A stretch of 64,000 nucleotides of DNA from an uncultured Cardiobacteriales bacterium (GTDB lineage: Bacteria; Pseudomonadota; Gammaproteobacteria; CAYWWW01). Under the pieces are notes generated by a model. It had not been told where the DNA came from, did not search any database, and was given only the letters and a program-made list of their open reading frames with translations. Made by a program: the position numbers and the translations under genes. Where the stretch lies: positions 71,223 through 135,222 of the forward strand of contig CAYWWW010000002.1 of assembly GCA_964462205.1 (NCBI GenBank), given 5' to 3'. Every line of letters starts with the position of its first letter. The stretch's first letter is position 1. Below, in pieces: positions 2,854 to 54,902 of this stretch.

Positions 2854-3789
2854 TTAATCGTATTGGGTTTCTAAGAACAGGCGATATTCTTTCGGAATGA
2901 CATTAAACATGCGGCAGATGGGACTGGCGAAACCATTGTCATAACAACCATATTGACGTTCTAAGGCTTCGCGCTGTTTGGGATACCAGCCGCAAAAACC
3001 GTGTAAATTCAAGCTGTCTTCATAACGGGATTTGTCCACGCGCATTTTGACATTGCTGAAAATATAGCCGCTGGGCGTGCGTAAGGCGCTGACAAAGGCT
3101 TTGGCACCACCTGGGGACTGACTGCTGCCGCGTTCATTGCAATCCAATTCCCAAAAAATACCGTTGGGTTGTTCGCGAACAATGGTTAATTCATAGCGAC
3201 GGCGATCAGCAGCGGGAACGGCTTCATTTTTGGACATATTGGGTAAGCGCAGGCTGTTTTCCATTGGGTTGTCGGGTACGCTTGGCAATTGTGGCGCACC
3301 GGGGAACATGCTGGCTAATGGATCATCAGGATTGGGTTTTTGTTCTTCGGCTTCGATTTTGGCTTTCATATCATTAAAAGGTAAGCCGTTGACAAATAAG
3401 CGAATAGAAGATATTTGTTGCGCGGGATTAGCCTCAACCAGCATGACCACGACATCTTGGCCGCAACGCACGGCGATCTGTTGTTCCACGGCGGGGTCTT
3501 CGGCACTTGGATATTTGCTACGCGCTTGTACTTCAAAATTACCTTCAGGGGTGCGCGTCAGTAAAAACTCGCCCTCTGGTTGAATGTCAATAATATCATT
3601 GTCATAGGTTTCAATGGTGGTGTTGCCGGTATAAACGCAGGTGCCAGTTTCATTGCCGTCACCATTAAAATCGGGTAAGCGGGTTTGTTCTTCTTGCGCG
3701 CCTTGGCCGGAACCAAAACCAAGCGGTGCGCCAAAAAAGGCCAAAACTGGCCAAATGGAAAAAAGAGAAAAAAGAAGCAGAAAGCGCAT
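2854..3789 (-). CDS. hypothetical secreted protein, unknown function
   Basis: ORF-track frame 2854..3867 trimmed to the ATG at 3789, which is preceded by AGGA; N-terminus MRFLLLFSLFSIWPVLA looks like a signal peptide; no catalytic motif recognised. Confidence 0.5.
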   Translation of the reverse strand: MRFLLLFSLFSIWPVLAFFGAPLGFGSGQGAQEEQTRLPDFNGDGNETGTCVYTGNTTIETYDNDIIDIQPEGEFLLTRTPEGNFEVQARSKYPSAEDPAVEQQIAVRCGQDVVVMLVEANPAQQISSIRLFVNGLPFNDMKAKIEAEEQKPNPDDPLASMFPGAPQLPSVPDNPMENSLRLPNMSKNEAVPAADRRRYELTIVREQPNGIFWELDCNERGSSQSPGGAKAFVSALRTPSGYIFSNVKMRVDKSRYEDSLNLHGFCGWYPKQREALERQYGCYDNGFASPICRMFNVIPKEYRLFLETQYD

Positions 3790-3866
3790 AAGGAATCCTT
3801 GAAAAAGAAAGAAAAGAAGGGCATGGCGGTTGTAACACCGAGGGTCGTACTGGTCAAGCGTCAGCA

Positions 3867-4118
3867 TTATTTTTCTTGGTCAGTTTTTTTGCTGCTTTGT
3901 AAAATTTCTGCTTGCTTTTCCATGCTGTAGAGTAGTTTCTCGACTTCTTCCTTAGAATGTTGAAGTTTGATCTGGCAAATCTGTAATAGCACGGTAGCGC
4001 GTTGTAAATTTTCAATCAATAATTCTAAAGGCGTGTTTTCATCATTAAGAATTTCTTGAACTTTTGCTAATTCTGCTAAAGCATCAAGAGGATAATCGGC
4101 ATCAGATTGTGACATCAT
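3867..4118 (-). CDS. xseB: exodeoxyribonuclease VII small subunit
   Basis: 83-aa ORF; LDALAELAKVQEIL..TPLELLIENLQRATVLLQICQIKL fits the XseB helical-hairpin pattern including the conserved Cys. Confidence 0.6.
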   Translation of the reverse strand: MMSQSDADYPLDALAELAKVQEILNDENTPLELLIENLQRATVLLQICQIKLQHSKEEVEKLLYSMEKQAEILQSSKKTDQEK

Positions 4119-8404: not shown

Positions 8405-9055
8405 ATGAATTTTATCTATTCTCTTGTTTTGTTTATTTTTATATCAAGCGCCACAGCGCAAAATTGGTATCCTCTTGGTGATCAGGTTTTTCGCTATAGA
8501 AATATTGAGAATCCTGATGAACATTGCGAAATCCGCGTGCTTGATCAAAAAGATTTTATTATCAACGGCAGAACAGAAACTTTTTATTTAATTATTGAAT
8601 GTTTACCTATGCCAGCAACGATGGATCATGGCTTAAATGCAGAAAAACTAGCCTTATATGCTGACAGTGGCAATTGGTTTTGGATGCAGAATGATGCTAT
8701 CGGTCAAAAGGAACTACTGAATGTTAATTTTGCTGGCGAACTTGATGATCAGAGTGAAAATTTTGAAACCGGTTATTTTTTTCGTTGGCCAAAAGCGCCG
8801 CAAGGTCTTTATCGTCTCAATCCAACATTTTATGAAAATGCCTGGATGGCCTATCGCTATCCTATTGATAAAAAAATAGTTGCACCTAATGGTCAGACTT
8901 ATAGCGATCTTGCTGAGTATCTCTTTAGTGATGGTTATGGTTTTTGGCTGCATTATTTTCTTGCTCCAGATGTTGGGGTTGTGCGTTATTCCTTTTGGAG
9001 TCAAGAAGAACCTATCCAAACTTATCTCTTAACAAGCATTGATAAAAATCAATAA
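8405..9055 (+). CDS. hypothetical secreted protein, aromatic-rich, co-oriented third gene after the RND pair
   Basis: ATG preceded by AGGAG 17 nt after the RND stop; signal peptide MNFIYSLVLFIFISSATAQ; no similarity to outer-membrane factors recognised. Confidence 0.55.
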   Translation: MNFIYSLVLFIFISSATAQNWYPLGDQVFRYRNIENPDEHCEIRVLDQKDFIINGRTETFYLIIECLPMPATMDHGLNAEKLALYADSGNWFWMQNDAIGQKELLNVNFAGELDDQSENFETGYFFRWPKAPQGLYRLNPTFYENAWMAYRYPIDKKIVAPNGQTYSDLAEYLFSDGYGFWLHYFLAPDVGVVRYSFWSQEEPIQTYLLTSIDKNQ

Positions 9056-9066
9056 ACTAAAATCAT

Positions 9067-9100
9067 CTGCGTGATTTTTTATCACGCAGTTTCTTTTTTT
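9067..9100 (+). terminator. intrinsic terminator after the RND operon
   Basis: perfect 9-bp stem CTGCGTGAT/ATCACGCAG with TTTTT loop followed by a T-run (tttcttttttt). Confidence 0.7.
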
Positions 9101-9118
9101 ACCTTTGACTATAGCCTT

Positions 9119-11089
9119 ATGCCTATTTCTACCCTTGAACTCTTAGCGCCAGCAAAAAATCTTGCCATTGGTAAAGCTGCTATTACCCACGGTGCCGATG
9201 CCGTTTATATCGGTGGACCGGCTTTCAGCGCACGTTATCAAGCTAATAATAGTATTGAAGAAATTGCTGAACTTGCCACCTTCGCACATCGTTATCACGC
9301 CAAAATTTTTGTTGCCTTGAATACCATTTTTCATGACGAGGAATTAGAAGCCGTTGCGCAGTTAATTGATCAGCTCTTTCAAGCGGAAGTGGATGCTTTA
9401 ATTATTCAAGATATGGCTATTTTGGAATTAAATCTGCCACCTATTGCACTTCATGCTTCTACCCAATGCGATATTCGCACCCCAGCCAAAGCCAAATTTT
9501 TAGCCGAAGTTGGCTTATCACAATTGGTATTGGCGCGGGAATTATCGCTGGTGGAAATTGCAGAAACGCAGCAAGTTATTGGTGATAAAGCGGTTTTAGA
9601 ATATTTTATTCACGGGGCATTATGTGTAGCCTTTTCGGGGCAATGTTATATGTCCCATGCCGAAACTGGGCGAAGCGCCAATCGTGGCGATTGTTCGCAA
9701 GCCTGTCGGCTACCTTATACCTTAAAAAATGCCGCTGGTGAGATTATTGCTTTTGATAAACATTTGTTATCTATGAAAGACAATGATCAAACCAATAATT
9801 TAGAAGCCTTGGTCAATGCTGGTATTCGTTCTTTTAAGATTGAAGGCCGTTACAAAGATATCAATTATGTCAAAAATAATACCGCGCATTATCGGCAGCA
9901 TCTGGATGCGATTTTAGCAGCGCGTTCTGACTTAAAACCGGCCAGCAGCGGACGTGTGGACTATGCTTTTGTTCCTGATCCGCAAAAAACTTTTCAACGC
10001 GGCAGCACCGATTATTTCGCGCATGGTCGTCAAGAAAATAGCATTGCGGCCTTTGATTCGCCGAAGTTTTTAGGCATTCCGGTGGCAGAAATTATCAGCT
10101 TAAAAAATAATTGTTTAGGCGTGCAGTTAAAGCCGGAAATTACCTTACGCAATGGCGATGGCGTGAGTTTTTTGTATCGTCGCGAAAGTAAAGGCTTTAC
10201 CATCAATGCTATTCGCGAAGCGCATCTGCCCAAGTGGGGGAAAATGATTTGGTTGACAGCCAATGATAACAGCATTTTCAATGCGTTGGATGCCAATGCC
10301 TTGGCCGGTCAAGTGCTCTATCGTAATCGTGATCATGCTTGGGAAGAAAGCCTGAAACAAGCCTCAGCGGAACGTCGTTTAGGGGTGCGTTTTTTATTGC
10401 AAGAAAATCAAAATGGCTTGATTTTGCAAGCAATAGATGAAGATAATAACATCGCAATACAAAAACTAGCGGTAACAAATAAAGCACGACAGCCAGAAAA
10501 ATTAGCGGAGCAATGGCAGGCGCAATTATCGCGTTTGGGGGACTCATTATTTTATTGGCAGGGCTTAGATTTATCTTTGAATTATCAATGGTTTGTGACA
10601 GTTTCGCAGATGAATCAACTGCGTCGCGATATTTTGACAGCTTTACTGGCAGAGCGCTTACGTCGTTATATCCGCCCGCAACGGCAGCCAGCGCTCGAAC
10701 CTGCGCCGGTCTATCCTTTGGAGCAGCTTTCCTATTTAGCTAATGTTTATAATAATTTAGCGCGAAAATTTTATGCGCGTCATGGGGTCAAAATAATGGA
10801 TCCGGCCTTTGAAGCACATCAAACCGATCAAGAAGTCAGCCTGATGATCACTAAACATTGCTTACGTTTTTCCTTTCAACTTTGTCCGAAACAAGCCAAA
10901 GGTATCACTGGTGTGCAAGGGCAAATTCGTGCTGAACCCCTTTTTTTAAGCAATGGCCAAGAGCATTACACCTTGACCTTTGATTGTCGTCCTTGTGAGA
11001 TGCATATTCGTGGAAAAATCAAGAAAAACATCATTAAGCAATTGCCGCCAGGGTCACAACCGATCAAGTTTTTTCCGCAGAAAAGCTAA
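9119..11089 (+). CDS. U32 family peptidase-like protein, long form (RlhA/YdcP-like putative rRNA hydroxylase)
   Basis: N-terminus MPISTLELLAPAKNLAIGKAAITHGADAVYIGG matches the U32 N-terminal domain; 657 aa from the ATG at 9119 is close to E. coli YdcP length as recalled; ORF-track start at 9071 lies inside the terminator hairpin so the start was moved to the first ATG. Confidence 0.7.
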   Translation: MPISTLELLAPAKNLAIGKAAITHGADAVYIGGPAFSARYQANNSIEEIAELATFAHRYHAKIFVALNTIFHDEELEAVAQLIDQLFQAEVDALIIQDMAILELNLPPIALHASTQCDIRTPAKAKFLAEVGLSQLVLARELSLVEIAETQQVIGDKAVLEYFIHGALCVAFSGQCYMSHAETGRSANRGDCSQACRLPYTLKNAAGEIIAFDKHLLSMKDNDQTNNLEALVNAGIRSFKIEGRYKDINYVKNNTAHYRQHLDAILAARSDLKPASSGRVDYAFVPDPQKTFQRGSTDYFAHGRQENSIAAFDSPKFLGIPVAEIISLKNNCLGVQLKPEITLRNGDGVSFLYRRESKGFTINAIREAHLPKWGKMIWLTANDNSIFNALDANALAGQVLYRNRDHAWEESLKQASAERRLGVRFLLQENQNGLILQAIDEDNNIAIQKLAVTNKARQPEKLAEQWQAQLSRLGDSLFYWQGLDLSLNYQWFVTVSQMNQLRRDILTALLAERLRRYIRPQRQPALEPAPVYPLEQLSYLANVYNNLARKFYARHGVKIMDPAFEAHQTDQEVSLMITKHCLRFSFQLCPKQAKGITGVQGQIRAEPLFLSNGQEHYTLTFDCRPCEMHIRGKIKKNIIKQLPPGSQPIKFFPQKS

Positions 11090-15302: not shown

Positions 15303-16190
15303 TTAGGGTTTTTGTACTTGAAAACTTGCGATATTAGAAACTTGCTTATCACTTTTTACAACTTGAACCTGCCAGGGTGCGGGTGTAGTGCCAACATTGA
15401 TTTCATAAGCTAAGGTTTGTGCATCCAAAAATAAGGGAACGCGATCATTAAAATCCGCATAGCCCACCATCTTAAAATTTAACTTGTCCGTTTCAGCAAA
15501 ATTTTCGCCAAAAAGAATTAACCATTGCCGTTCACCAGAGGCTTTAGTAACTAGCGGATTTGGATAAATAAAAGAAATTTCTGGTGCCGGCTGACTTGCG
15601 CTTTCTACGACTTGGTTAAAACGACGTGGTAAATAATTGTTATCTCTGGCTAAAACCCGATGCGTAACGCCATCAATGCTTCCTGAGGTGGTGGATTCGT
15701 AGAGCATCATGCTGCCATCGCTATTGTAATAATGAAATAACCGCACATGACTCCCTGCTTTATTGACAATATCGCCAGCTTTTAAGTCCGACCAATTGAT
15801 TTGCTTAGAAATATTTGGCAGGCTGCGGGTGCTATATTTGCTTGAGGTTTCCCAGACCCGGCTGACAAAACCCGAGCAGTCAATACCGGCAAAATCGGTG
15901 CGAATATGCGTGGAATCATGCAAGGTTTTTTTGTCGTTGCCAGCGATACGGCCAGCATTAACTCGACTTAAAAATTCAGAAACGCTATTAAACCCACCCC
16001 AGTTATAGGCCATGCCGGTAACTTTTTGACCAATGCTGCGGTTATTCCAATAACTATTGGCATTACCGGATTTTACCGTCCATTGGACATTGGCAAAGGT
16101 TTCGGCGTTATCAATAATTTTTTGCCGATCAATGGCTGGTGCAGAAAGGGTGAAGCAAAAAATAATCAGAAAAAGTATAAAACGCATCAT
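15303..16190 (-). CDS. secreted papain-fold cysteine peptidase/amidase-like protein (NlpC/P60 or CHAP-like)
   Basis: start trimmed to ATGATG at 16190/16187 preceded by GGAG; signal peptide MMRFILFLIIFCFTLSAPA; catalytic-looking Cys in AGIDCSGFVSRVW and downstream His in AGSHVRLF. Confidence 0.55.
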   Translation of the reverse strand: MMRFILFLIIFCFTLSAPAIDRQKIIDNAETFANVQWTVKSGNANSYWNNRSIGQKVTGMAYNWGGFNSVSEFLSRVNAGRIAGNDKKTLHDSTHIRTDFAGIDCSGFVSRVWETSSKYSTRSLPNISKQINWSDLKAGDIVNKAGSHVRLFHYYNSDGSMMLYESTTSGSIDGVTHRVLARDNNYLPRRFNQVVESASQPAPEISFIYPNPLVTKASGERQWLILFGENFAETDKLNFKMVGYADFNDRVPLFLDAQTLAYEINVGTTPAPWQVQVVKSDKQVSNIASFQVQKP

Positions 16191-16242
16191 AAACTCCGAC
16201 ATGAAAGAAATAAAAGTTGAAGAAAAAACTTTAAGAAACAAA

Positions 16243-17709
16243 TCAACGCCATTGCAGCACTTCGGCACCGTTTGGCGTGGTGATCAATTGTTGCAATTGA
16301 CCATTTTTATCGCTTAATAATTTGCGATAACTGGTGGTGTGATAGTCATTCGGCAAGGCTTTTTCAGCGATAATTTTTTGCTTTTCCAAGTCTATTTCCA
16401 AGACTTTTAAGCCGACATAACCATCGGGATAGACATATTCTGCTTCCAATAACAAGTTACCAGCGGCAGTTTTGCCAATGGGACCGACAACGCCAAGGTC
16501 GCCAGCAGGGTTGAATGGTAACTGACCTTTGGGTTGACCTTCACTATCAAGTAACAACAAATTGACTTCTCTCGGATTTTTCCAAGAAGTGCGGATAAAA
16601 TCCTCACCAAAAGGATAGCCTGGCAATATCGGTTGTGGGTTGGTTAAAAGATTTTTACCTTTAGCAACCGCTTGACATTGTTGTAGTTTGCAAACATAGG
16701 TTTGACCATTTTCTTGATAAAAACCTTGGCGATAACCTTCGCTTTTGGGTAAGTCCTCTAAAGAAAAGCGTTGCTGATTCATCTGAATACCCGCAGCTTG
16801 CAAGGTAAGCAATTGATCACCAAGAGTAATCATATCTTCTACTTGCGTGTCAAAAGTTAAATTTTCCAACCAGTTGCCATTGCGATCATATTTTTTCACG
16901 GTTAAGCCATCGGCATCTAAAAGATAGCGATGGCCAGCGGCATCTACGGTAAAGGTTTGTGCGCCAACGGTTTCTAGTTCTTCACCCTGTTGTAACTCTA
17001 GGTTTTCTTTATCTTTTCCCCAAGGAACACTGAGTGCTGCGCTTAATTCTGGTAATTGATTTTGTAAGGCTTGCGGCAAACGTTGTTGCCAGTATTGACG
17101 ACGTTTTTCTAAATCAGTTTTTTCAGCAGAAAAGTTTTTTGCTTCAGTAGCTTGTGGTTCAGGACAGGGGCTTTCAGTGGAGAGGCAAATAGACAAATCA
17201 AGCAGCAAAGTTAAAAATTCTTGGCAGTTATCAGAAAAAATTGGGGTAATGATTTTTCCTTCGGCAAAAATAGCTTCGCCTTGATAGACTGGACAAGGGA
17301 GGTCTTTTTCATAATGTTTTGTTTTTATAAATTTTTCCATCAATAATTGACCTTTACCTTGCGGTTGACCAAAGGCAAAATCACCTTGATAGCGCATTTG
17401 AAAAGCATCGTCAGTGACCGTTAAATTGCCTTCACCATGCGCACGACCGATTTGAAATGTACCTTGAAAATGCCGGAAAGGTTCGGCCAATAGCGGGTCT
17501 TGTCGAGTGAGATCACCTTTGCCGCTGGCGAAACCGGCGCTGAATTGGCCGCGATAATGCCAAATGGCGAGAATACGCTCTTGATTTTGCAAAGTTAAAC
17601 GGTATTCTCCGATACCTTCTTGACAATCGCCAGAAAGGCATTGCGCAGCTAAGAGCGGTGAAAAAAATAAAGCGATCAGTGGCAAGGCTATGAATGATAA
17701 ATTAAACAT
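16243..17709 (-). CDS. secreted MORN-repeat protein, unknown function
   Basis: signal peptide MFNLSFIALPLIALFFSPLLAA; three MORN-like repeats (YRGQFSAGFASGKGDL, FQGTFQIGRAHGEGNL, YQGDFAFGQPQGKGQL) then about 330 aa without recognisable domain. Confidence 0.55.
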   Translation of the reverse strand: MFNLSFIALPLIALFFSPLLAAQCLSGDCQEGIGEYRLTLQNQERILAIWHYRGQFSAGFASGKGDLTRQDPLLAEPFRHFQGTFQIGRAHGEGNLTVTDDAFQMRYQGDFAFGQPQGKGQLLMEKFIKTKHYEKDLPCPVYQGEAIFAEGKIITPIFSDNCQEFLTLLLDLSICLSTESPCPEPQATEAKNFSAEKTDLEKRRQYWQQRLPQALQNQLPELSAALSVPWGKDKENLELQQGEELETVGAQTFTVDAAGHRYLLDADGLTVKKYDRNGNWLENLTFDTQVEDMITLGDQLLTLQAAGIQMNQQRFSLEDLPKSEGYRQGFYQENGQTYVCKLQQCQAVAKGKNLLTNPQPILPGYPFGEDFIRTSWKNPREVNLLLLDSEGQPKGQLPFNPAGDLGVVGPIGKTAAGNLLLEAEYVYPDGYVGLKVLEIDLEKQKIIAEKALPNDYHTTSYRKLLSDKNGQLQQLITTPNGAEVLQWR

Positions 17710-17840: not shown

Positions 17841-19178
17841 ATGACTGAACTTTTATCCCCCGCCGGCACTTTGAAAAATATGCGTTATGCCTTTGCTTAC
17901 GGTGCCGACGCTGTTTATGCCGGTCAACCCCGTTATTCGTTGCGGGTGCGCAATAATGATTTTTTGAACGATAATTTAACCATCGGCATTCAAGAAGCAC
18001 ACACACAAGGTAAGCGGTTTTATCTCACCTTAAATGGCATTCCGCACAACAATAAAACCAAGACCTTTCTTCGTGACTTGGAAGAAATCATGGACTTAAA
18101 ACCCGATGGCGTGATTATGGCCGATCCTGGGTTAATTGCCTTGGTGCGTGAAAAATATCCCGAATTGCCGGTGCATTTATCGGTGCAAATGAATACGGTC
18201 AATAGTTTGTCGGTGAAGTTTTGGCAAAGTTTAGGCTTAACTCGGGTGATTTTATCCCGCGAACTCGGGCTAGATGAAATTACTGAAATTAAAAGTGATT
18301 GTGCCGATATGGAACTCGAAGTTTTTGTCCACGGTGCTTTGTGTATTGCTTATTCAGGACGTTGTTTATTATCAGGTTATTTTAACCATCGTGATCCCAA
18401 TCAAGGTGCCTGTACCAATGCTTGTCGTTGGGAATATCAAACCGTGGCCGCCGAAGAAAATTTAACCGGTGAAGTCTTACCGATTTCTCGCCAGGCATTG
18501 GAAGCCATGGAGGCAATACCTTTGCAAAATCAAGCACAAGTAGTCAAACGGCATCCGGCTGCTGATAAAGTTTATTTATTGCAGGAAGCGCAGCGTCCGG
18601 GGGAATATTTTCCGATTTTAGAAGATGAGCATGGAACCTATATCATGAATTCCAAAGACTTGCGCGCTGTGCAGCATGTAGATGCCTTAGTAAAAATGGG
18701 TATGGATTGCTTAAAAATTGAAGGTCGTACCAAATCGCATTACTACGTCGCCCGCACCGCGCAGGTCTATCGGCAAGCCATTGACGATGCAAAGGCCGAA
18801 CGACCATTTAATCCTAAGTTGCTTTGGGAACTAGAAAATTTGGCCAATCGTGGTTATACCGAAGGTTTTTATGATCGGCATCCGCCGAATCATTATCAAA
18901 ATTATCAGCAGGATATTTCCCGTAGCAGTCAACAGCAATTTGTCGCTGAAGTGCTTGATAGTCATGGAGACTGGTTGACCGTTGACGTAAAAAATAAATT
19001 TGCGGTTGGCGATACATTACAATGGTTATCCCCGTTGGGTAACGTGGATTTTGTGCTGACAGCCATGGAAAATCTCCACGGTGAAAAAATGGCTTTAGCA
19101 CCCGGTGCTGGTTATCGGGTACGCATCCCAATGCCCGCGCCTTTTCATCCCTATGCTTTGTTATTGCGTTATTTCTAA
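17841..19178 (+). CDS. trhP: U32 family peptidase-like protein, short form (YegQ/TrhP-like tRNA hydroxylation protein)
   Basis: 445 aa; N-terminus ELLSPAGTLKNMRYAFAYGADAVYAGQPRYSLRVRNN and internal EAQRPGEY..EDEHGTYIMNSKDLRA closely follow E. coli YegQ as recalled. Confidence 0.7.
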   Translation: MTELLSPAGTLKNMRYAFAYGADAVYAGQPRYSLRVRNNDFLNDNLTIGIQEAHTQGKRFYLTLNGIPHNNKTKTFLRDLEEIMDLKPDGVIMADPGLIALVREKYPELPVHLSVQMNTVNSLSVKFWQSLGLTRVILSRELGLDEITEIKSDCADMELEVFVHGALCIAYSGRCLLSGYFNHRDPNQGACTNACRWEYQTVAAEENLTGEVLPISRQALEAMEAIPLQNQAQVVKRHPAADKVYLLQEAQRPGEYFPILEDEHGTYIMNSKDLRAVQHVDALVKMGMDCLKIEGRTKSHYYVARTAQVYRQAIDDAKAERPFNPKLLWELENLANRGYTEGFYDRHPPNHYQNYQQDISRSSQQQFVAEVLDSHGDWLTVDVKNKFAVGDTLQWLSPLGNVDFVLTAMENLHGEKMALAPGAGYRVRIPMPAPFHPYALLLRYF

Positions 19179-35545: not shown

Positions 35546-36517
35546 ATGGAACCTAATCAGACGACGAGCAGTGCTGATACGTCAGTCAAAGCTTTTGAAA
35601 CCAACACCTGGTCTTTGGCGCTACTCGAAAAAATGCTTTTTGCCAGTATCGAAGAACAACGTCGCGCCCGTCGCTGGCGGATTTTTTTGCAACTTTTAAC
35701 CCTATCCTATCTTTTGCTGGTGTTGTTTTTGGTCTTAGACATTGAGATGCCGAAAGATTTTGCTATCAGCGAAGGTCACACCGCCCGCATTGACATTGAA
35801 GGCACTATCAGCGACGGCGGCGATACCGATGCTTTGCGGGTCAATCGCGCTTTGCAGGCAGCTTTTGAAGACCCGGATACCAAGGGGGTAGTGTTATACG
35901 CCAATAGCCCTGGCGGTAGCCCGGTGCAGTCGGGGATGATTTATCGGGAAATTCTTAAATTAAAACAAGAGCATCCTGAGACAAAAGTCTATGCCGTGAT
36001 AAGCGATCTTTGTGCCTCTGGCTGTTATTATATTGCGGCGGCAGCCGATAAAATTTATGCCGACCCGGCGAGTTTAGTCGGTTCGATTGGTGTGCGTTTT
36101 GATAGCTTTGGTTTTGTTGATTTATTGGAGAAAATCGGCGTTGAGCGGCGCTTAGTGACTGCGGGTGAAAATAAAGGCATGTTAGACCCTTTTTTACCGA
36201 TTGACCCGCTGCAAAAAGCGCATGTTGAAAATTTATTAGCCGATATCCATCAACAATTTATCAAAGCCGTACAAGATGGACGGGGTGAACGCTTGGCCGA
36301 CGACGAGAAAATTTTTTCCGGCTTAATCTGGACCGGCGACAGCGCCATTGCCCTTGGCTTAGTGGATGAACTGGCGGACTTGTCTTATGTCGCCAAAACG
36401 GTGATCGGTGCGGAAACCATTGTGCGTTATGGCCAAAAGCGACCCTTGGATGATGTTTTTGCTTCAATAACGCAGGCTTTTTGGCGTAATATGGCCAAGG
36501 CTTTTACCTTGTATTGA
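35546..36517 (+). CDS. sppA: signal peptide peptidase SppA (S49 family, 36K type)
   Basis: N-terminal TM segment; S49 core (VVLYANSPGGSPV.., SDLCASGCYYIA, GSIGV). Confidence 0.7.
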   Translation: MEPNQTTSSADTSVKAFETNTWSLALLEKMLFASIEEQRRARRWRIFLQLLTLSYLLLVLFLVLDIEMPKDFAISEGHTARIDIEGTISDGGDTDALRVNRALQAAFEDPDTKGVVLYANSPGGSPVQSGMIYREILKLKQEHPETKVYAVISDLCASGCYYIAAAADKIYADPASLVGSIGVRFDSFGFVDLLEKIGVERRLVTAGENKGMLDPFLPIDPLQKAHVENLLADIHQQFIKAVQDGRGERLADDEKIFSGLIWTGDSAIALGLVDELADLSYVAKTVIGAETIVRYGQKRPLDDVFASITQAFWRNMAKAFTLY

Positions 36518-36580: not shown

Positions 36581-37207
36581 ATGGCGGATTTTCGTAAAGC
36601 GCTGGTTGTGGATGACTCAAAACTTGCCCGTTTTACCTTGACTAAAATCCTCGAAAAAATGGGTTTTGAGGTCTCCGGGGTCATCTCTGGCGAGGAGGCG
36701 TTGCTTGCGGTAGAGCAAGCGCCACCAGATTTGATTTTCATGGATTTTCAAATGCCTGGCATTGATGGTTATGAAGCCAGCGCTCGTATTACCGCACAAA
36801 AATCTATTCCTATCATTATCTGCACCGCGCAAGAGGATTACGAACAGGAGTTGGCGCGTGCCAAAGCACACGGCGCTTTTGACCTGTTACGCAAACCGGT
36901 GACGGAAGAAGGTGTGGAAGGCGTGATGCAAAAAATTCACAAGCATTGGCAAGCAGCACCCCAACAAGCGGTGGTTGCTCCGGCTGCCGTGCCGGCTGAC
37001 GTGGTGACCCCGCTGCCTTCTCCCGAAATGCTGGCGGCGTTTTTTCAACAAGAAGCCGCCTGGTGTCAAAGCCAAGTGCAAGAGGCGCTGCGTGGCCTGT
37101 TGATGGAAAAAATTTCGCTCTACTTGGCCAGGGAATTAACGCCTATCTTGATGCAAAAACTTCAGGTGCATTTTCAAGAATGGTTAGAAAAGCACGGAAA
37201 AAGCTGA
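36581..37207 (+). CDS. stand-alone response-regulator receiver protein with uncharacterised C-terminal tail
   Basis: GGGAG ribosome-binding site; REC residues VVDDS, phospho-acceptor Asp in LIFMDFQMPGIDG, IICTAQ, LRKP; about 85-aa tail with no helix-turn-helix. Confidence 0.8.
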   Translation: MADFRKALVVDDSKLARFTLTKILEKMGFEVSGVISGEEALLAVEQAPPDLIFMDFQMPGIDGYEASARITAQKSIPIIICTAQEDYEQELARAKAHGAFDLLRKPVTEEGVEGVMQKIHKHWQAAPQQAVVAPAAVPADVVTPLPSPEMLAAFFQQEAAWCQSQVQEALRGLLMEKISLYLARELTPILMQKLQVHFQEWLEKHGKS

Positions 37208-37268
37208 AATTATTTTATAACCAGCTTGATAATAATCGCGTAACCTTTATTTATTCTTAGGATAAGCA

Positions 37269-37886
37269 ATGAAAACAGCATTAGTGGTGGATGATTCCCG
37301 TTTGGCGCGAATCAGTTTGACAAAAATTCTTGAAAAATTAGGCATGCAGGTAGATGCCGTTGAAAACGGTCGGGTGGCGCTGGATTTTTTGAAATCAACA
37401 GATAATCCGCGTCCTGACATTATTTTTATGGATTATTTAATGCCTGAAATGAATGGTTACGAAGCGACCAAGGCTATCAGTAGTAATCCCCATACCATGC
37501 ACATTCCCGTCATCATCTGCACCTCGCAGGAAGACGAAGACAGAGAGCGGCAACGCGCCCGCGCCAATGGTGCGCAAGGCTTTATCAAAAAGCCCATCAC
37601 CGATGAAAAAGTCAATGAAGTTATTCAAGATATGCGCTCAAAAACCCGTGCTGCACCGGCAGCGACAAGTGCACCACCTTCCGATGAAGCGCTACAAAAA
37701 TCTATCAAAACCACCTTGCAAAAATATCTGCCCGACTTAACCGCCGAGATTGCCAAAAAAGTCGAGCATGATTTACTCGAGCATCTGCAAAAGGTCGCAG
37801 CACAACAAAAAGCGCAGCATGAACAACTGGATAGCTTGCATAAACGCCTAAGTCGTATTGAGCAGTTTTTGATGAAAAAAACTTAA
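37269..37886 (+). CDS. stand-alone response-regulator receiver protein, paralogue of the upstream gene
   Basis: AGGA ribosome-binding site; REC residues VVDDS, IIFMDYLMPEMNG, ICTSQ, IKKP; Ala/Pro-rich linker then helical-looking tail. Confidence 0.8.
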   Translation: MKTALVVDDSRLARISLTKILEKLGMQVDAVENGRVALDFLKSTDNPRPDIIFMDYLMPEMNGYEATKAISSNPHTMHIPVIICTSQEDEDRERQRARANGAQGFIKKPITDEKVNEVIQDMRSKTRAAPAATSAPPSDEALQKSIKTTLQKYLPDLTAEIAKKVEHDLLEHLQKVAAQQKAQHEQLDSLHKRLSRIEQFLMKKT

Positions 37887-37906
37887 AACTGAAAAACTTA
37901 AAACTG
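37877..37906 (+). repeat. tandem duplication of a 15-bp unit (AAAAACTTAAAACTG x2) overlapping the stop codon of the second receiver gene
   Basis: two perfect adjacent copies. Confidence 0.6.
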
Positions 37907-37932
37907 AAATGCAAAAGCAGCAATGGATTTTG

Positions 37933-38556
37933 CTAAGGAACGGCAAAGCCAACTTGCCGTAAGGCTTTGGCCAGCGCTATCAATGGCAGGCCAATCAACC
38001 CGCTGGGGTCTTGATTTTCCAAGGATTCCAGCAAACTTATTCCCAAGCCCTCGCTGTGCAGACTGCCGGCGGCATCCCAAGCCGCTTCTTTCGCGAGATA
38101 GCGGTCAATTTCCGCTGGCGATAATTCGCGCACCCGTAATTTTTGGACATCCAGATGCGTAAGTGTTTGCTTTGTTTGCTGTTGAAATAAGCAAAAAGCG
38201 GTGTAACAGAGCAGATTTTGGCCGGACATTTTGCGTAATTGCTGATAAGCACCGTCACGGCTGCCGCCTTTGCCTAAAATTTCCGCATTCAGCAACAAGC
38301 ATTGATCACTACCGATCACCCAGGCATGGGGATGCCGCGCAGCAACGGCTTGCGCCTTAGCTTTGGCCAGACGCAGCGTATAGTTAGCAGCGCTTTCCAA
38401 GGCTTGCGGTGTTTCGTCAACGTCGCTAGTTTCACAAGTAAAATCAAGCTGTAAACGTTGCAGTAACGCCCGCCGATACGGCGAGGCCGAGGCCAAAAGC
38501 AAAGGCATGGTGCTGGCGGTTGCTGGGGAGCGGGGTGCGCTGGCTGGTTCTGGCAT
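37933..38556 (-). CDS. maf: Maf-like nucleotide pyrophosphatase (YceF-type)
   Basis: MPLLLASASPYRRALLQRLQL..DVDETP matches the Maf N-terminus; ATG at 38556 has AAGGAA; an alternative start at 38508 would remove a 16-aa extension. Confidence 0.8.
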   Translation of the reverse strand: MPEPASAPRSPATASTMPLLLASASPYRRALLQRLQLDFTCETSDVDETPQALESAANYTLRLAKAKAQAVAARHPHAWVIGSDQCLLLNAEILGKGGSRDGAYQQLRKMSGQNLLCYTAFCLFQQQTKQTLTHLDVQKLRVRELSPAEIDRYLAKEAAWDAAGSLHSEGLGISLLESLENQDPSGLIGLPLIALAKALRQVGFAVP

Positions 38557-53662: not shown

Positions 53663-54301
53663 TTATTTAACTTCCATAGGCATTGGGATGACGGGAGGCA
53701 TTGCTTGCTGGTGGTTTTTATCTAAATAAATCCAGGTTTCTACTTGAGATAAATGCAAGCGCTGCGCTTGATAAAATAAGCCAGCAGCTTGGCCAGCGCT
53801 CATTTTGGCCTGCCAAAAGATTGGATCATTACTTTTGGCCGTGCGATTTTTTAGATCAATAACGAGCGTCTTTAAGTCTAAGACTAAATCTTGCTGTGAA
53901 AGTGCAGCTTGTTCTAAAAACAATTGATTTTCTTTGGAAAAACCAGTTTTTGCCTCTACTGAAAAATCCTGCCATTGCCAGCGCAAATCGAAAAATTCGA
54001 CTGCTGGCGAGGCATCCAAATGCAATTTTTGCACACTTGCCTGTTGTTGCATTGGTAAAAATAGACGATCTTCTCGATCAACTTCTTGATCAATTTCATT
54101 AAAAGTTAAGTCTTTGTTGATTTCTCCTGATGTTTCAGCGTTGGCATAACTACTGACCGTCACTTGATAAAAAGTGCTGGTGGTAAAATTCGGTGAGAGG
54201 TTATCTAAAGATAACTGTGGCGCTTGCTGTCCTATAAACCAGAGAAAAACCAACAGGGTAAGCGACAATAACAACCAAAGACGTAGGCTTAGTTTAAGCA
54301 T
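53663..54301 (-). CDS. lptC: LPS export system protein LptC
   Basis: start trimmed to the ATG at 54301 (MLKLSLRLWLLLSLTLLVFLWF membrane anchor); about 212 aa; position between kdsC and lptA. Confidence 0.7.
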   Translation of the reverse strand: MLKLSLRLWLLLSLTLLVFLWFIGQQAPQLSLDNLSPNFTTSTFYQVTVSSYANAETSGEINKDLTFNEIDQEVDREDRLFLPMQQQASVQKLHLDASPAVEFFDLRWQWQDFSVEAKTGFSKENQLFLEQAALSQQDLVLDLKTLVIDLKNRTAKSNDPIFWQAKMSAGQAAGLFYQAQRLHLSQVETWIYLDKNHQQAMPPVIPMPMEVK

Positions 54302-54347
54302 AAAATGTATTGTTCTCAAACAATGGCCAGGCGATTTATCTGCATCA

Positions 54348-54902
54348 TCAATCAAGGTAACTTTGCCAAAGGTCGGCAAGTTTATTCTGCGCCAGGAGCA
54401 AACCTTCAGCAATTTCCCGTACTGCGCCAGCGCCACCGCTGTGGGTGGTTTGCCAATGGCTATGTGCTTTGACCAAAGGATGCGCGTTAGCAACGCTGAT
54501 GGCCAAACCGACACGGGTCATCACTGATAAGTCCACTACATCATCGCCAACAAAGGCTAGATGCTTAGCGGGTAATTGCCAAGCGGCGCAGAGTGCTTCA
54601 AATGCGGGAAGTTTTTTTCGGTAGCCTTGATAAACATCACTGATGCCCAAGTCTTGCATCCGATGCGCTACTACTTGTGAAGAACGTCCGGTGATAATCC
54701 CTAAGCGAAAGCCTTGTTCTAACAGCAAACGCAGCCCATGACCATCCAAGGCATGAAAGGATTTATATTCCTGACCATCATCACCAAGATAGAGACGGCC
54801 ATCGGTCAATACCCCGTCAACATCAAAAATAATCCCACGAATATCTTTAGCTTGTTCTGGAATATTTTGTTTACTAAGGGAAAAAGTTGAGAGTCGGTTC
54901 AT
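54348..54902 (-). CDS. kdsC: 3-deoxy-D-manno-octulosonate 8-phosphate phosphatase
   Basis: HAD motif I IIFDVDGVLTDG; 184 aa; kdsD-kdsC order. Confidence 0.9.
   Translation of the reverse strand: MNRLSTFSLSKQNIPEQAKDIRGIIFDVDGVLTDGRLYLGDDGQEYKSFHALDGHGLRLLLEQGFRLGIITGRSSQVVAHRMQDLGISDVYQGYRKKLPAFEALCAAWQLPAKHLAFVGDDVVDLSVMTRVGLAISVANAHPLVKAHSHWQTTHSGGAGAVREIAEGLLLAQNKLADLWQSYLD

Follow-up and report, generated by a model that had tools for sequence, protein, structure and literature searches.

Single-domain response regulators are frequently encoded by orphan genes and exert their output via protein-protein interactions (PMC12802240, PMC8995066, PMC4671073), a mode of action that has been characterized for the regulator EpsW (PMC12802240). 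Published census work likewise expects that stand-alone receivers with C-terminal extensions become phosphorylated and signal through protein-protein interaction (PMC5847659). Stand-alone receivers are the least understood response regulators because their outputs are unreadable from sequence. Here, a tandem pair of such proteins, named RR1 and RR2, is described, which is encoded in a 64-kb stretch of contig CAYWWW010000002.1 from an uncultured Cardiobacteriales bacterium; this whole stretch is referred to as the window in the following. Both proteins combine a receiver domain (REC) having an intact active site with one long, conserved C-terminal helix, and they are probably, though far from certainly, functional stand-alone response regulators that can be phosphorylated and that signal via protein contacts of the helical tails.

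RR1 (208 amino acids; positions 36581-37207, plus strand) comprises a receiver, an Ala/Pro linker and one long helix, and RR2 (205 amino acids; 37269-37886, plus strand) comprises a receiver, a short linker and one long helix. The two open reading frames (ORFs) agree with the first-pass annotation of this DNA, which had reported two adjacent proteins of about 205 amino acids. As in CheY, Spo0F, DivK, EpsW, VemR, and McvR, no globular domain is present besides the receiver, whose phospho-acceptor site is intact; like single-domain regulators in general, RR1 and RR2 have neither a DNA-binding nor an enzymatic output domain. In contrast to these regulators, they add approximately 80 conserved, lineage-restricted residues, which form a linker and a helix of 58-66 residues. 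Strictly speaking, they are receiver-plus-helix rather than receiver-only proteins.

A receiver fold followed by a helical region for interaction and localization has been described for FrzS from Myxococcus xanthus (PMC1974792, PMC9811614), which is a pseudo-receiver without a phospho-acceptor aspartate and without Mg2+ binding (PMC1974792). RR1 and RR2 resemble FrzS in having an N-terminal receiver fold and an extended helical region but differ from it in having kept Asp55 and the full catalytic set. No sequence relationship of RR1 or RR2 to FrzS was found, and the coiled coil of FrzS is much longer than the helices of the pair. REC-HalX proteins and C-terminally extended archaeal receivers, such as those encoded by the adjacent M. 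mazei genes MM_2953 and MM_2954, likewise have behind the receiver a short stretch of unknown function that is helical or disordered, and signalling by protein-protein interaction has been predicted for them (PMC5847659). In contrast to RR1 and RR2, these proteins are archaeal or haloarchaeal, and HalX (PF08662), a Pfam domain of three helices, is matched by neither RR1 nor RR2.

The tandem arrangement of two CheY-like genes is shared with PilG/PilH, and PilH-labelled proteins are among the nearer relatives of the receivers with approximately 40-45% identity. Unlike RR1 and RR2, these PilH-labelled matches are REC-only proteins of about 121 amino acids that have no helical tail. The Pfam scan of the window covered 40 ORFs of 156-1034 amino acids, and some housekeeping ORFs of at least 150 amino acids were called by synteny only. 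Neither pilI, pilJ, or chpA nor any histidine kinase, Hpt, or chemosensory domain was found among these 40 scanned ORFs. Within this scope, the initial statement that the window contains no histidine kinase or Hpt gene was borne out; no histidine kinase or Hpt gene lies beside the relatives of the pair in the other genomes examined either.

Receiver domains

The receiver of RR1 spans residues 1-125 (36581-36955, plus strand) and that of RR2 residues 1-128 (37269-37652, plus strand; Pfam match to residues 5-119). Both match PF00072 (Response_reg) with E values of 1.5e-25 for RR1 and 1.6e-25 for RR2, corresponding to 89.9 and 89.8 bits at a cut-off of 30.2. Alignment to CheY from E. coli places the catalytic residues D12/D13/D57/T87/K109 of CheY at D11/D12/D55/T82/K105 in RR1 and at D8/D9/D55/T85/K108 in RR2, the codons of the phospho-acceptor D55 being located at 36743-36745 and 37431-37433, respectively. 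This quintet is invariant in all 12 aligned family members, and the active sites of RR1 and RR2 are intact. The motifs VVDDS, IFMD, ICT, and R/KKP, on which the first-pass annotation had based its assignment of two complete CheY-like receivers, are present exactly as quoted there. At the switch position that corresponds to Y106 of CheY, RR2 carries the aromatic residue F105.

AlphaFold2 models built with family alignments contain a confident (beta-alpha)5 receiver in both proteins, with predicted local distance difference test (pLDDT) values above 90 and above 92 for the receiver of RR2; the means over the whole proteins are 81 for RR1 and 88 for RR2. The best structural matches of the receivers are CheY, DivK, and RR468, and the Foldseek matches of RR2 are receiver domains only. 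Neither protein reaches the cut-off of 200 bits of the NCBIfam equivalogs for EpsW and CheY_Halo (NF041866 and NF041367), to which RR2 scores 64.3 and 74.6 bits and RR1 45.6 and 55.2 bits, respectively. A defence system was also considered and rejected, as PADLOC returned weak receiver-type matches only for RR1 (best E 1.9e-5, 22 bits) and none for RR2.

The two receivers are 48% identical to each other (E 8e-38), consistent with the paralogy proposed earlier. In a neighbour-joining tree of REC sequences, the RR1 clade and the RR2 clade are each supported by 100% bootstrap, and their pairing as sisters by 34% only. A tandem duplication within the lineage giving rise to RR1 and RR2 is therefore plausible but not proven.

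Linkers and C-terminal helices

In RR1, the receiver is followed by an Ala/Pro/Val-rich linker of residues 126-147 (36956-37021, plus strand), which is predicted to be disordered (pLDDT below 50 for residues 126-145) and varies in length among orthologues. The corresponding Ala/Pro-rich linker of RR2 comprises residues 129-138 (37653-37682, plus strand; pLDDT below 50 for residues 129-137), and indels of up to about 50 amino acids were found at this site in P0124 and P0125. Most of the remainder of each protein is predicted by AlphaFold2 to form a single alpha-helix with invariant alignment columns, encompassing residues 148-205 in RR1 (37022-37195, plus strand; pLDDT 70-84) and residues 139-204 in RR2 (37683-37880, plus strand; pLDDT up to 91). 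The tails of 60-80 amino acids in the first-pass annotation had been described as helical-looking, which holds; a separate folded domain is not supported by the models, in which each tail is one long helix of 58-66 amino acids.

The helix of RR1 is unusually hydrophobic, with 23 strongly hydrophobic residues out of 58, and contains the invariant residues F155, F156, A160, M176, L183, T188, L195, W202, and L203. In RR2, the last 20 or so residues (QLDSLHKRLSRIEQFLMKK) are heptad-like and amphipathic (hydrophobic moment, muH, 0.52-0.56). The helix ends in the invariant motif L190-x2-R193-x2-R196-I-E-Q-F-L201-x-K203, which is kept down to orthologues with only 44-51% overall identity. Because conservation covers all faces of the helix, the alignment suggests that the C-terminal helix of RR2 is a specific docking surface and not a generic coiled coil.

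Beyond the receiver, Pfam and NCBIfam gave no threshold-level match in RR1 or RR2, and structure searches matched no fold besides REC. Profiles of the tails compared with all PDB sequences yielded nothing significant, the best hit being an unrelated protein with an E value of 0.004. A HMMER search of 1.84 billion representative proteins with the profile of the RR2 tail gave three matches at E <=0.001, all of which are RR2 orthologues, and a metagenome scan with the RR2 alignment returned generic receivers of at most 44% identity and no new orthologues. Homology between the two tails was also rejected as undetectable: BLASTP produced no alignment of the RR1 and RR2 tails, and hhalign assigned a probability of 2.6%. 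The tails thus match nothing characterized, which is in line with the earlier remark that they contain no recognizable output motif.

These results bear on the alternative that the tails hide a known output, namely an Hpt-like helix, an ANTAR domain or another RNA- or DNA-binding element, or a segment of zinc-finger or anti-sigma type. What speaks for it are sub-threshold matches to zf-HC2 in RR1 (E 0.13) and to coiled-coil-type families in RR2 (E 0.03-0.17). Pfam, however, gave no signal for ANTAR (PF03861), HalX, helix-turn-helix, or sigma-like domains in either protein. An Hpt domain (PF01627) was rejected, as there is no match and a single helix is present instead of a four-helix bundle; the lack of an invariant histidine in either tail argues against an Hpt-like role. 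A cryptic output of these kinds is very improbable, and one of the DNA-binding or Hpt kind is effectively excluded.

Purifying selection on both genes

Selection was assessed by comparing the window with locus L084, whose sequences are 77-83% identical. The ratio of non-synonymous to synonymous substitution rates (omega, from dN and dS) amounts to 0.061 in RR1, 0.059 in RR2, and 0.057 in sppA, the gene upstream of the pair. In the tails, dN is 0.12-0.15 (RR1 0.15) versus a dS of approximately 1.9, and the tail of RR2 has an omega of 0.062. The linkers are fast-evolving, with dN values of 0.77 in RR1 and 0.54 in RR2, compared with 0.06 for the receiver of RR1. Purifying selection acts on the two genes, and on their tails too.

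Decaying duplicates or annotation artefacts would be suggested only by the lack of any assigned function and of a kinase gene nearby, and this explanation carries practically no weight. It is refuted by the constraint on the tails and by omega values of 0.06 for both genes, which equal that of sppA. Moreover, the active sites are intact, the genes are conserved, with regard to both sequence and position, down to relatives in which SppA is only 62% identical, and both have good ribosome-binding sites, with a GGAG or AGGA motif located 7-8 nt upstream of the ATG. RR1 and RR2 are real genes.

Genomic context and lineage distribution

The pair is located in the local gene order rne(-), rluC, a HAD phosphatase gene, sppA, RR1, RR2, maf(-), yceD, rpmF, plsX, fabH, a CYTH gene, and uvrC. 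Upstream lies sppA, encoding a peptidase of family S49 (35546-36517, plus strand), and downstream the convergent maf (37933-38556, minus strand); both assignments are based on conserved synteny and on matches to PF01343 and PF02545, respectively, in the identical locus L001. The genes sppA, RR1, and RR2 are encoded on one strand with intergenic gaps of 61-63 nt, the gap between sppA and RR1 being 63 nt, and 46 nt separate the stop codon of RR2 from maf. None of the three intergenic regions contains a convincing terminator or RNA structure (folding versus shuffled sequence, z -0.05 to -0.5), and a promoter scan of these regions found a single weak promoter-like site compared with 4.3 expected by chance. 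Because of this lack of convincing terminators, promoters, and RNA structures, co-transcription of RR1 and RR2 with sppA is possible. The spacer between the convergent stop codons of RR2 and maf (37887-37932) contains the short direct repeat AAAACTGAAA(AACTT)AAAACTGAAA and does not fold into a stable terminator hairpin (z -0.05).

For comparison, 80 loci were fetched with the SppA of the window from one-genome-per-species collections. They stem from diverse Gammaproteobacteria including Burkholderiales, all of them species other than that of the window, and their SppA proteins are 45-56% identical to the query. The order rne(-)-rluC-HAD-sppA is kept in most of these loci, and in 45 of the 80, sppA is followed by a convergent maf gene at a distance of up to 5 kb. 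Direct adjacency of sppA and maf, with a gap below 350 nt, was found in 9 of these 45 loci; in 30 the gap is 475-884 nt and holds one small gene, and in the remaining 6 it is 1.1-1.6 kb. Genes similar to RR1 or RR2 were found nowhere in any of the 80 loci down to an E value of 1e-3.

By contrast, the pair occupies the junction of sppA and maf in every related contig that was recovered. The order sppA-RR1-RR2-maf is present in L001 (identical to the window), in L090 (RR2 92% identical), in L084 (SppA 83% identical), which originates from the metagenome of a Yellowstone mat at 44 C and pH 8.3, and in L086, in which SppA is 62%, the RR1 receiver 63%, and RR2 48% identical. Contig L089 is cut at its 5' end and shows an RR2-like gene followed by maf, yceD, and rpmF. 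The two genes are adjacent and in the same order in all four contigs in which both positions are visible. Among orthologues, identities are 77-84% for RR1, with one further sequence at 45%, and 83-92% for RR2, with further ones at 51% and 44%.

The organism itself is sparsely represented. Among 5.8 billion protein clusters, SppA and UvrC of the window have only two or three close relatives with 83-91% identity; the next matches, to named Gammaproteobacteria and Burkholderiales, are at most 56% identical for SppA and at most 49% for UvrC. The few close relatives and the sharp drop in identity place the host in a deep and poorly sampled gammaproteobacterial lineage. The species of the window is absent from the one-genome-per-species set.

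With this distribution, the first-pass description of the pair as a lineage-specific insertion holds: as uncharacterized genes, RR1 and RR2 keep this position only within one narrow lineage. The accompanying statement that sppA and maf are neighbours in Pseudomonas-type genomes proved right with regard to synteny, and the organism is not of that type. A signature of horizontal transfer was rejected: the GC content of 0.43-0.52 over the pair is within the range of 0.38-0.56 in the surrounding 8.5 kb, so that composition does not change abruptly at the pair. Genes of mobile elements were not seen.

In other lineages, the junction of sppA and maf is occupied by different ORFs, such as a minus-strand methyltransferase-like ORF of 175-243 amino acids in Burkholderiales, an ORF of about 400 amino acids in two gammaproteobacterial metagenome-assembled genomes (MAGs) that appears EAL/HDOD-like by eye, and a lipase-like ORF in one locus. 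Examples from the set L004-L083 are L013:2142-3344, L039:3008-4225, L064:6064-7035, and L004:5960-6490. The junction is thus a permissive spot. As other lineages have genes of their own at this site, a functional link of the pair to sppA or maf does not follow from its position alone.

Relatives with longer tails and a solitary RR1-like gene

The closest relatives outside the lineage form several dozen clusters of proteins of 290-356 amino acids that are found, among others, in Ketobacter alkanivorans and in Pseudomonadales MAGs. Their receivers are 40-57% identical to those of the pair and have the common motifs ALVVDDSK.AR, PDIIFMD, and IPVI.CT. The receiver is followed by a helical region of approximately 170 amino acids without Pfam match and then by a hydrophobic C-terminal segment. 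A hydrophobic 19-mer with Kyte-Doolittle values of 1.6-2.9 is located 0-10 residues from the C-terminus in all 19 long relatives examined. Because each of the 19 ends in such a strongly hydrophobic segment, the long relatives appear to constitute a sizeable, uncharacterized family of tail-anchored, apparently phosphorylatable receivers. No account of such proteins turned up in literature searches for response regulators with a membrane or tail anchor. The set comprises L002:4940-5812 and L002:6001-7017 from Ketobacter alkanivorans as well as P0007-P0014 and P0126-P0169. Ketobacter has two of these genes as a tandem pair; in other genomes they occur singly, and no kinase gene adjoins any of them.

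RR1 and RR2 resemble these Ketobacter-type proteins in the motifs of the REC subfamily, in their Pfam-less helical tails, and in the lack of an adjacent kinase. They differ in having neither the helical region of about 170 amino acids nor a C-terminal transmembrane segment, and in their genomic context. The resemblance nevertheless raises the alternative that the helices of the pair are localization devices at the membrane, the cell pole, or a scaffold, and that phosphorylation acts on a locally concentrated target. The anchored relatives and the polar targeting of FrzS by its receiver and helical region (PMC1974792, PMC9811614) would be precedents for such a role, and the C-terminal 18 residues of RR2 form an amphipathic, basic stretch (muH 0.56; K/R-rich). 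This amphipathicity is only moderate, though, and a coiled-coil heptad fits it equally well. No transmembrane-like or other hydrophobic segment is present in RR1, RR2, or their orthologues, the maximum Kyte-Doolittle value over 19 residues being 1.09 in RR1, where it falls in the linker, and -0.17 in RR2. Homology of the short tails to the long ones was rejected as well (hhalign probability 6.9% for RR2 and 19.8% for RR1). A localization function, which draws on analogy, is regarded as unlikely.

A solitary RR1-like gene, P0006, was found at L085:3525-4085. It encodes a protein of 186 amino acids that is 42% identical to RR1 and has a helical tail, and it belongs to the RR1 clade of the REC tree. 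Flanked by genes for an rRNA adenine dimethylase and a lipoate/biotin ligase, it is in an unrelated context. Therefore, RR1-type proteins also occur without an RR2 partner. This observation, together with the often single long relatives, weakens a further explanation, according to which RR1 and RR2 are an obligate heteromer held together by the tails, which either integrates two phospho-inputs or uses one of its receivers as a phosphate sink. Such a complex would be consistent with the conservation of both genes side by side and in the same order in the four contigs, with the tandem pair of long relatives in Ketobacter, and with the tails themselves, which differ from each other yet are conserved within each clade, as complementary surfaces would be. 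We consider an obligate heteromer to be quite unlikely.

Regarding their origin, RR1 and RR2 would probably have arisen by tandem duplication within the REC subfamily whose longer members are membrane-anchored, and the pair may later have been fixed at the junction of sppA and maf in this lineage. The membrane-anchored cousins hint at a possible past role of the tail.

Proposed mode of action

In the reading that we favour, in which RR1 and RR2 are phosphorylatable regulators acting through contacts of their tails, a kinase encoded elsewhere in the genome would feed both proteins as part of a two-component or phosphorelay pathway. Phosphorylation of Asp55 would switch the alpha4-beta5-alpha5 surface of the receiver, and the output would consist of changed protein-protein contacts in which the helical tail takes part and would be neither DNA binding nor catalysis. 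Possible contacts are self-association, association of RR1 with RR2, or binding of a third protein. This reading matches the characterized regulators EpsW, VemR, and McvR as well as the prediction of the census (PMC5847659), and the orthologues of RR1 and RR2 co-occur on the same contigs. The role of an adaptor in phospho-signalling, for which the pair had been put forward as a candidate, is plausible on these grounds.

Several observations weigh against the favoured reading. At the position of the CheY switch residue Y106, RR1 has a leucine, which is not aromatic. Neither a single heptad register nor a heptad pattern was seen in the helix of RR1, and the regular heptad is confined to the last 20 or so residues of RR2, so that a classical coiled coil is not demonstrated. 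The single straight helix in the AlphaFold models may merely reflect a missing partner. In addition, the search for a kinase was confined to the visible 64 kb of the genome, and the neighbours sppA, maf, yceD, rpmF, and plsX give no functional clue. We infer that both proteins are actually phosphorylated, interact with one or more partners, and control a cellular process; that the partner enters by inference also counts on the negative side.

A more specific and more far-reaching version is that the pair is a lineage-restricted, self-contained switch of two receivers, in which the C-terminal helix of RR2 with its invariant RIEQFL, and likewise the hydrophobic RR1 helix, would dock as peptides onto the alpha4-beta5-alpha5 face of a receiver, be it their own or that of the partner. 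The tail would be released or captured upon phosphorylation, thereby exposing a new interaction surface. An analogy for such docking is provided by peptides of FliM and CheZ, which bind CheY. We regard this version as a long shot; if true, it would represent a new output logic of response regulators, possibly tied to the surrounding block of envelope and division housekeeping genes.

Orphan receivers with unannotated helical extensions are common, and the pair is a well-documented but unsurprising addition to them that opens no long-standing question. It represents a clean minimal case, with intact receivers, conserved single-helix tails, an invariant terminal motif, and strict co-occurrence. 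Identification of a partner would add one more route of receiver signalling and would provide a function for a few dozen uncharacterized relatives.

Other open reading frames of the window

Some further ORFs of the window have little or no similarity to known families. At E <=1e-4, no Pfam family was matched by the ORFs at 2854-3867 (minus strand), 8405-9055 (plus strand), and 53663-54514 (minus strand), which encode 216-337 amino acids; the last of these lies inside the block near rpoN (50.9-56 kb), and a different start codon or frame may apply to it. An ORF of 321 amino acids at 15303-16268 (minus strand) is also without Pfam match and overlaps the end of an ORF of 488 amino acids at 16243-17709 (minus strand), whose sole match is a MORN repeat (E 1e-6). 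Two genes of the peptidase U32 family are located at 9071-11089 and 17841-19178 (both plus strand), and one of them has a DUF3656 'collagenase' C-terminal domain. These U32 genes may encode factors of the UbiU/UbiV type for O2-independent hydroxylation of ubiquinone.

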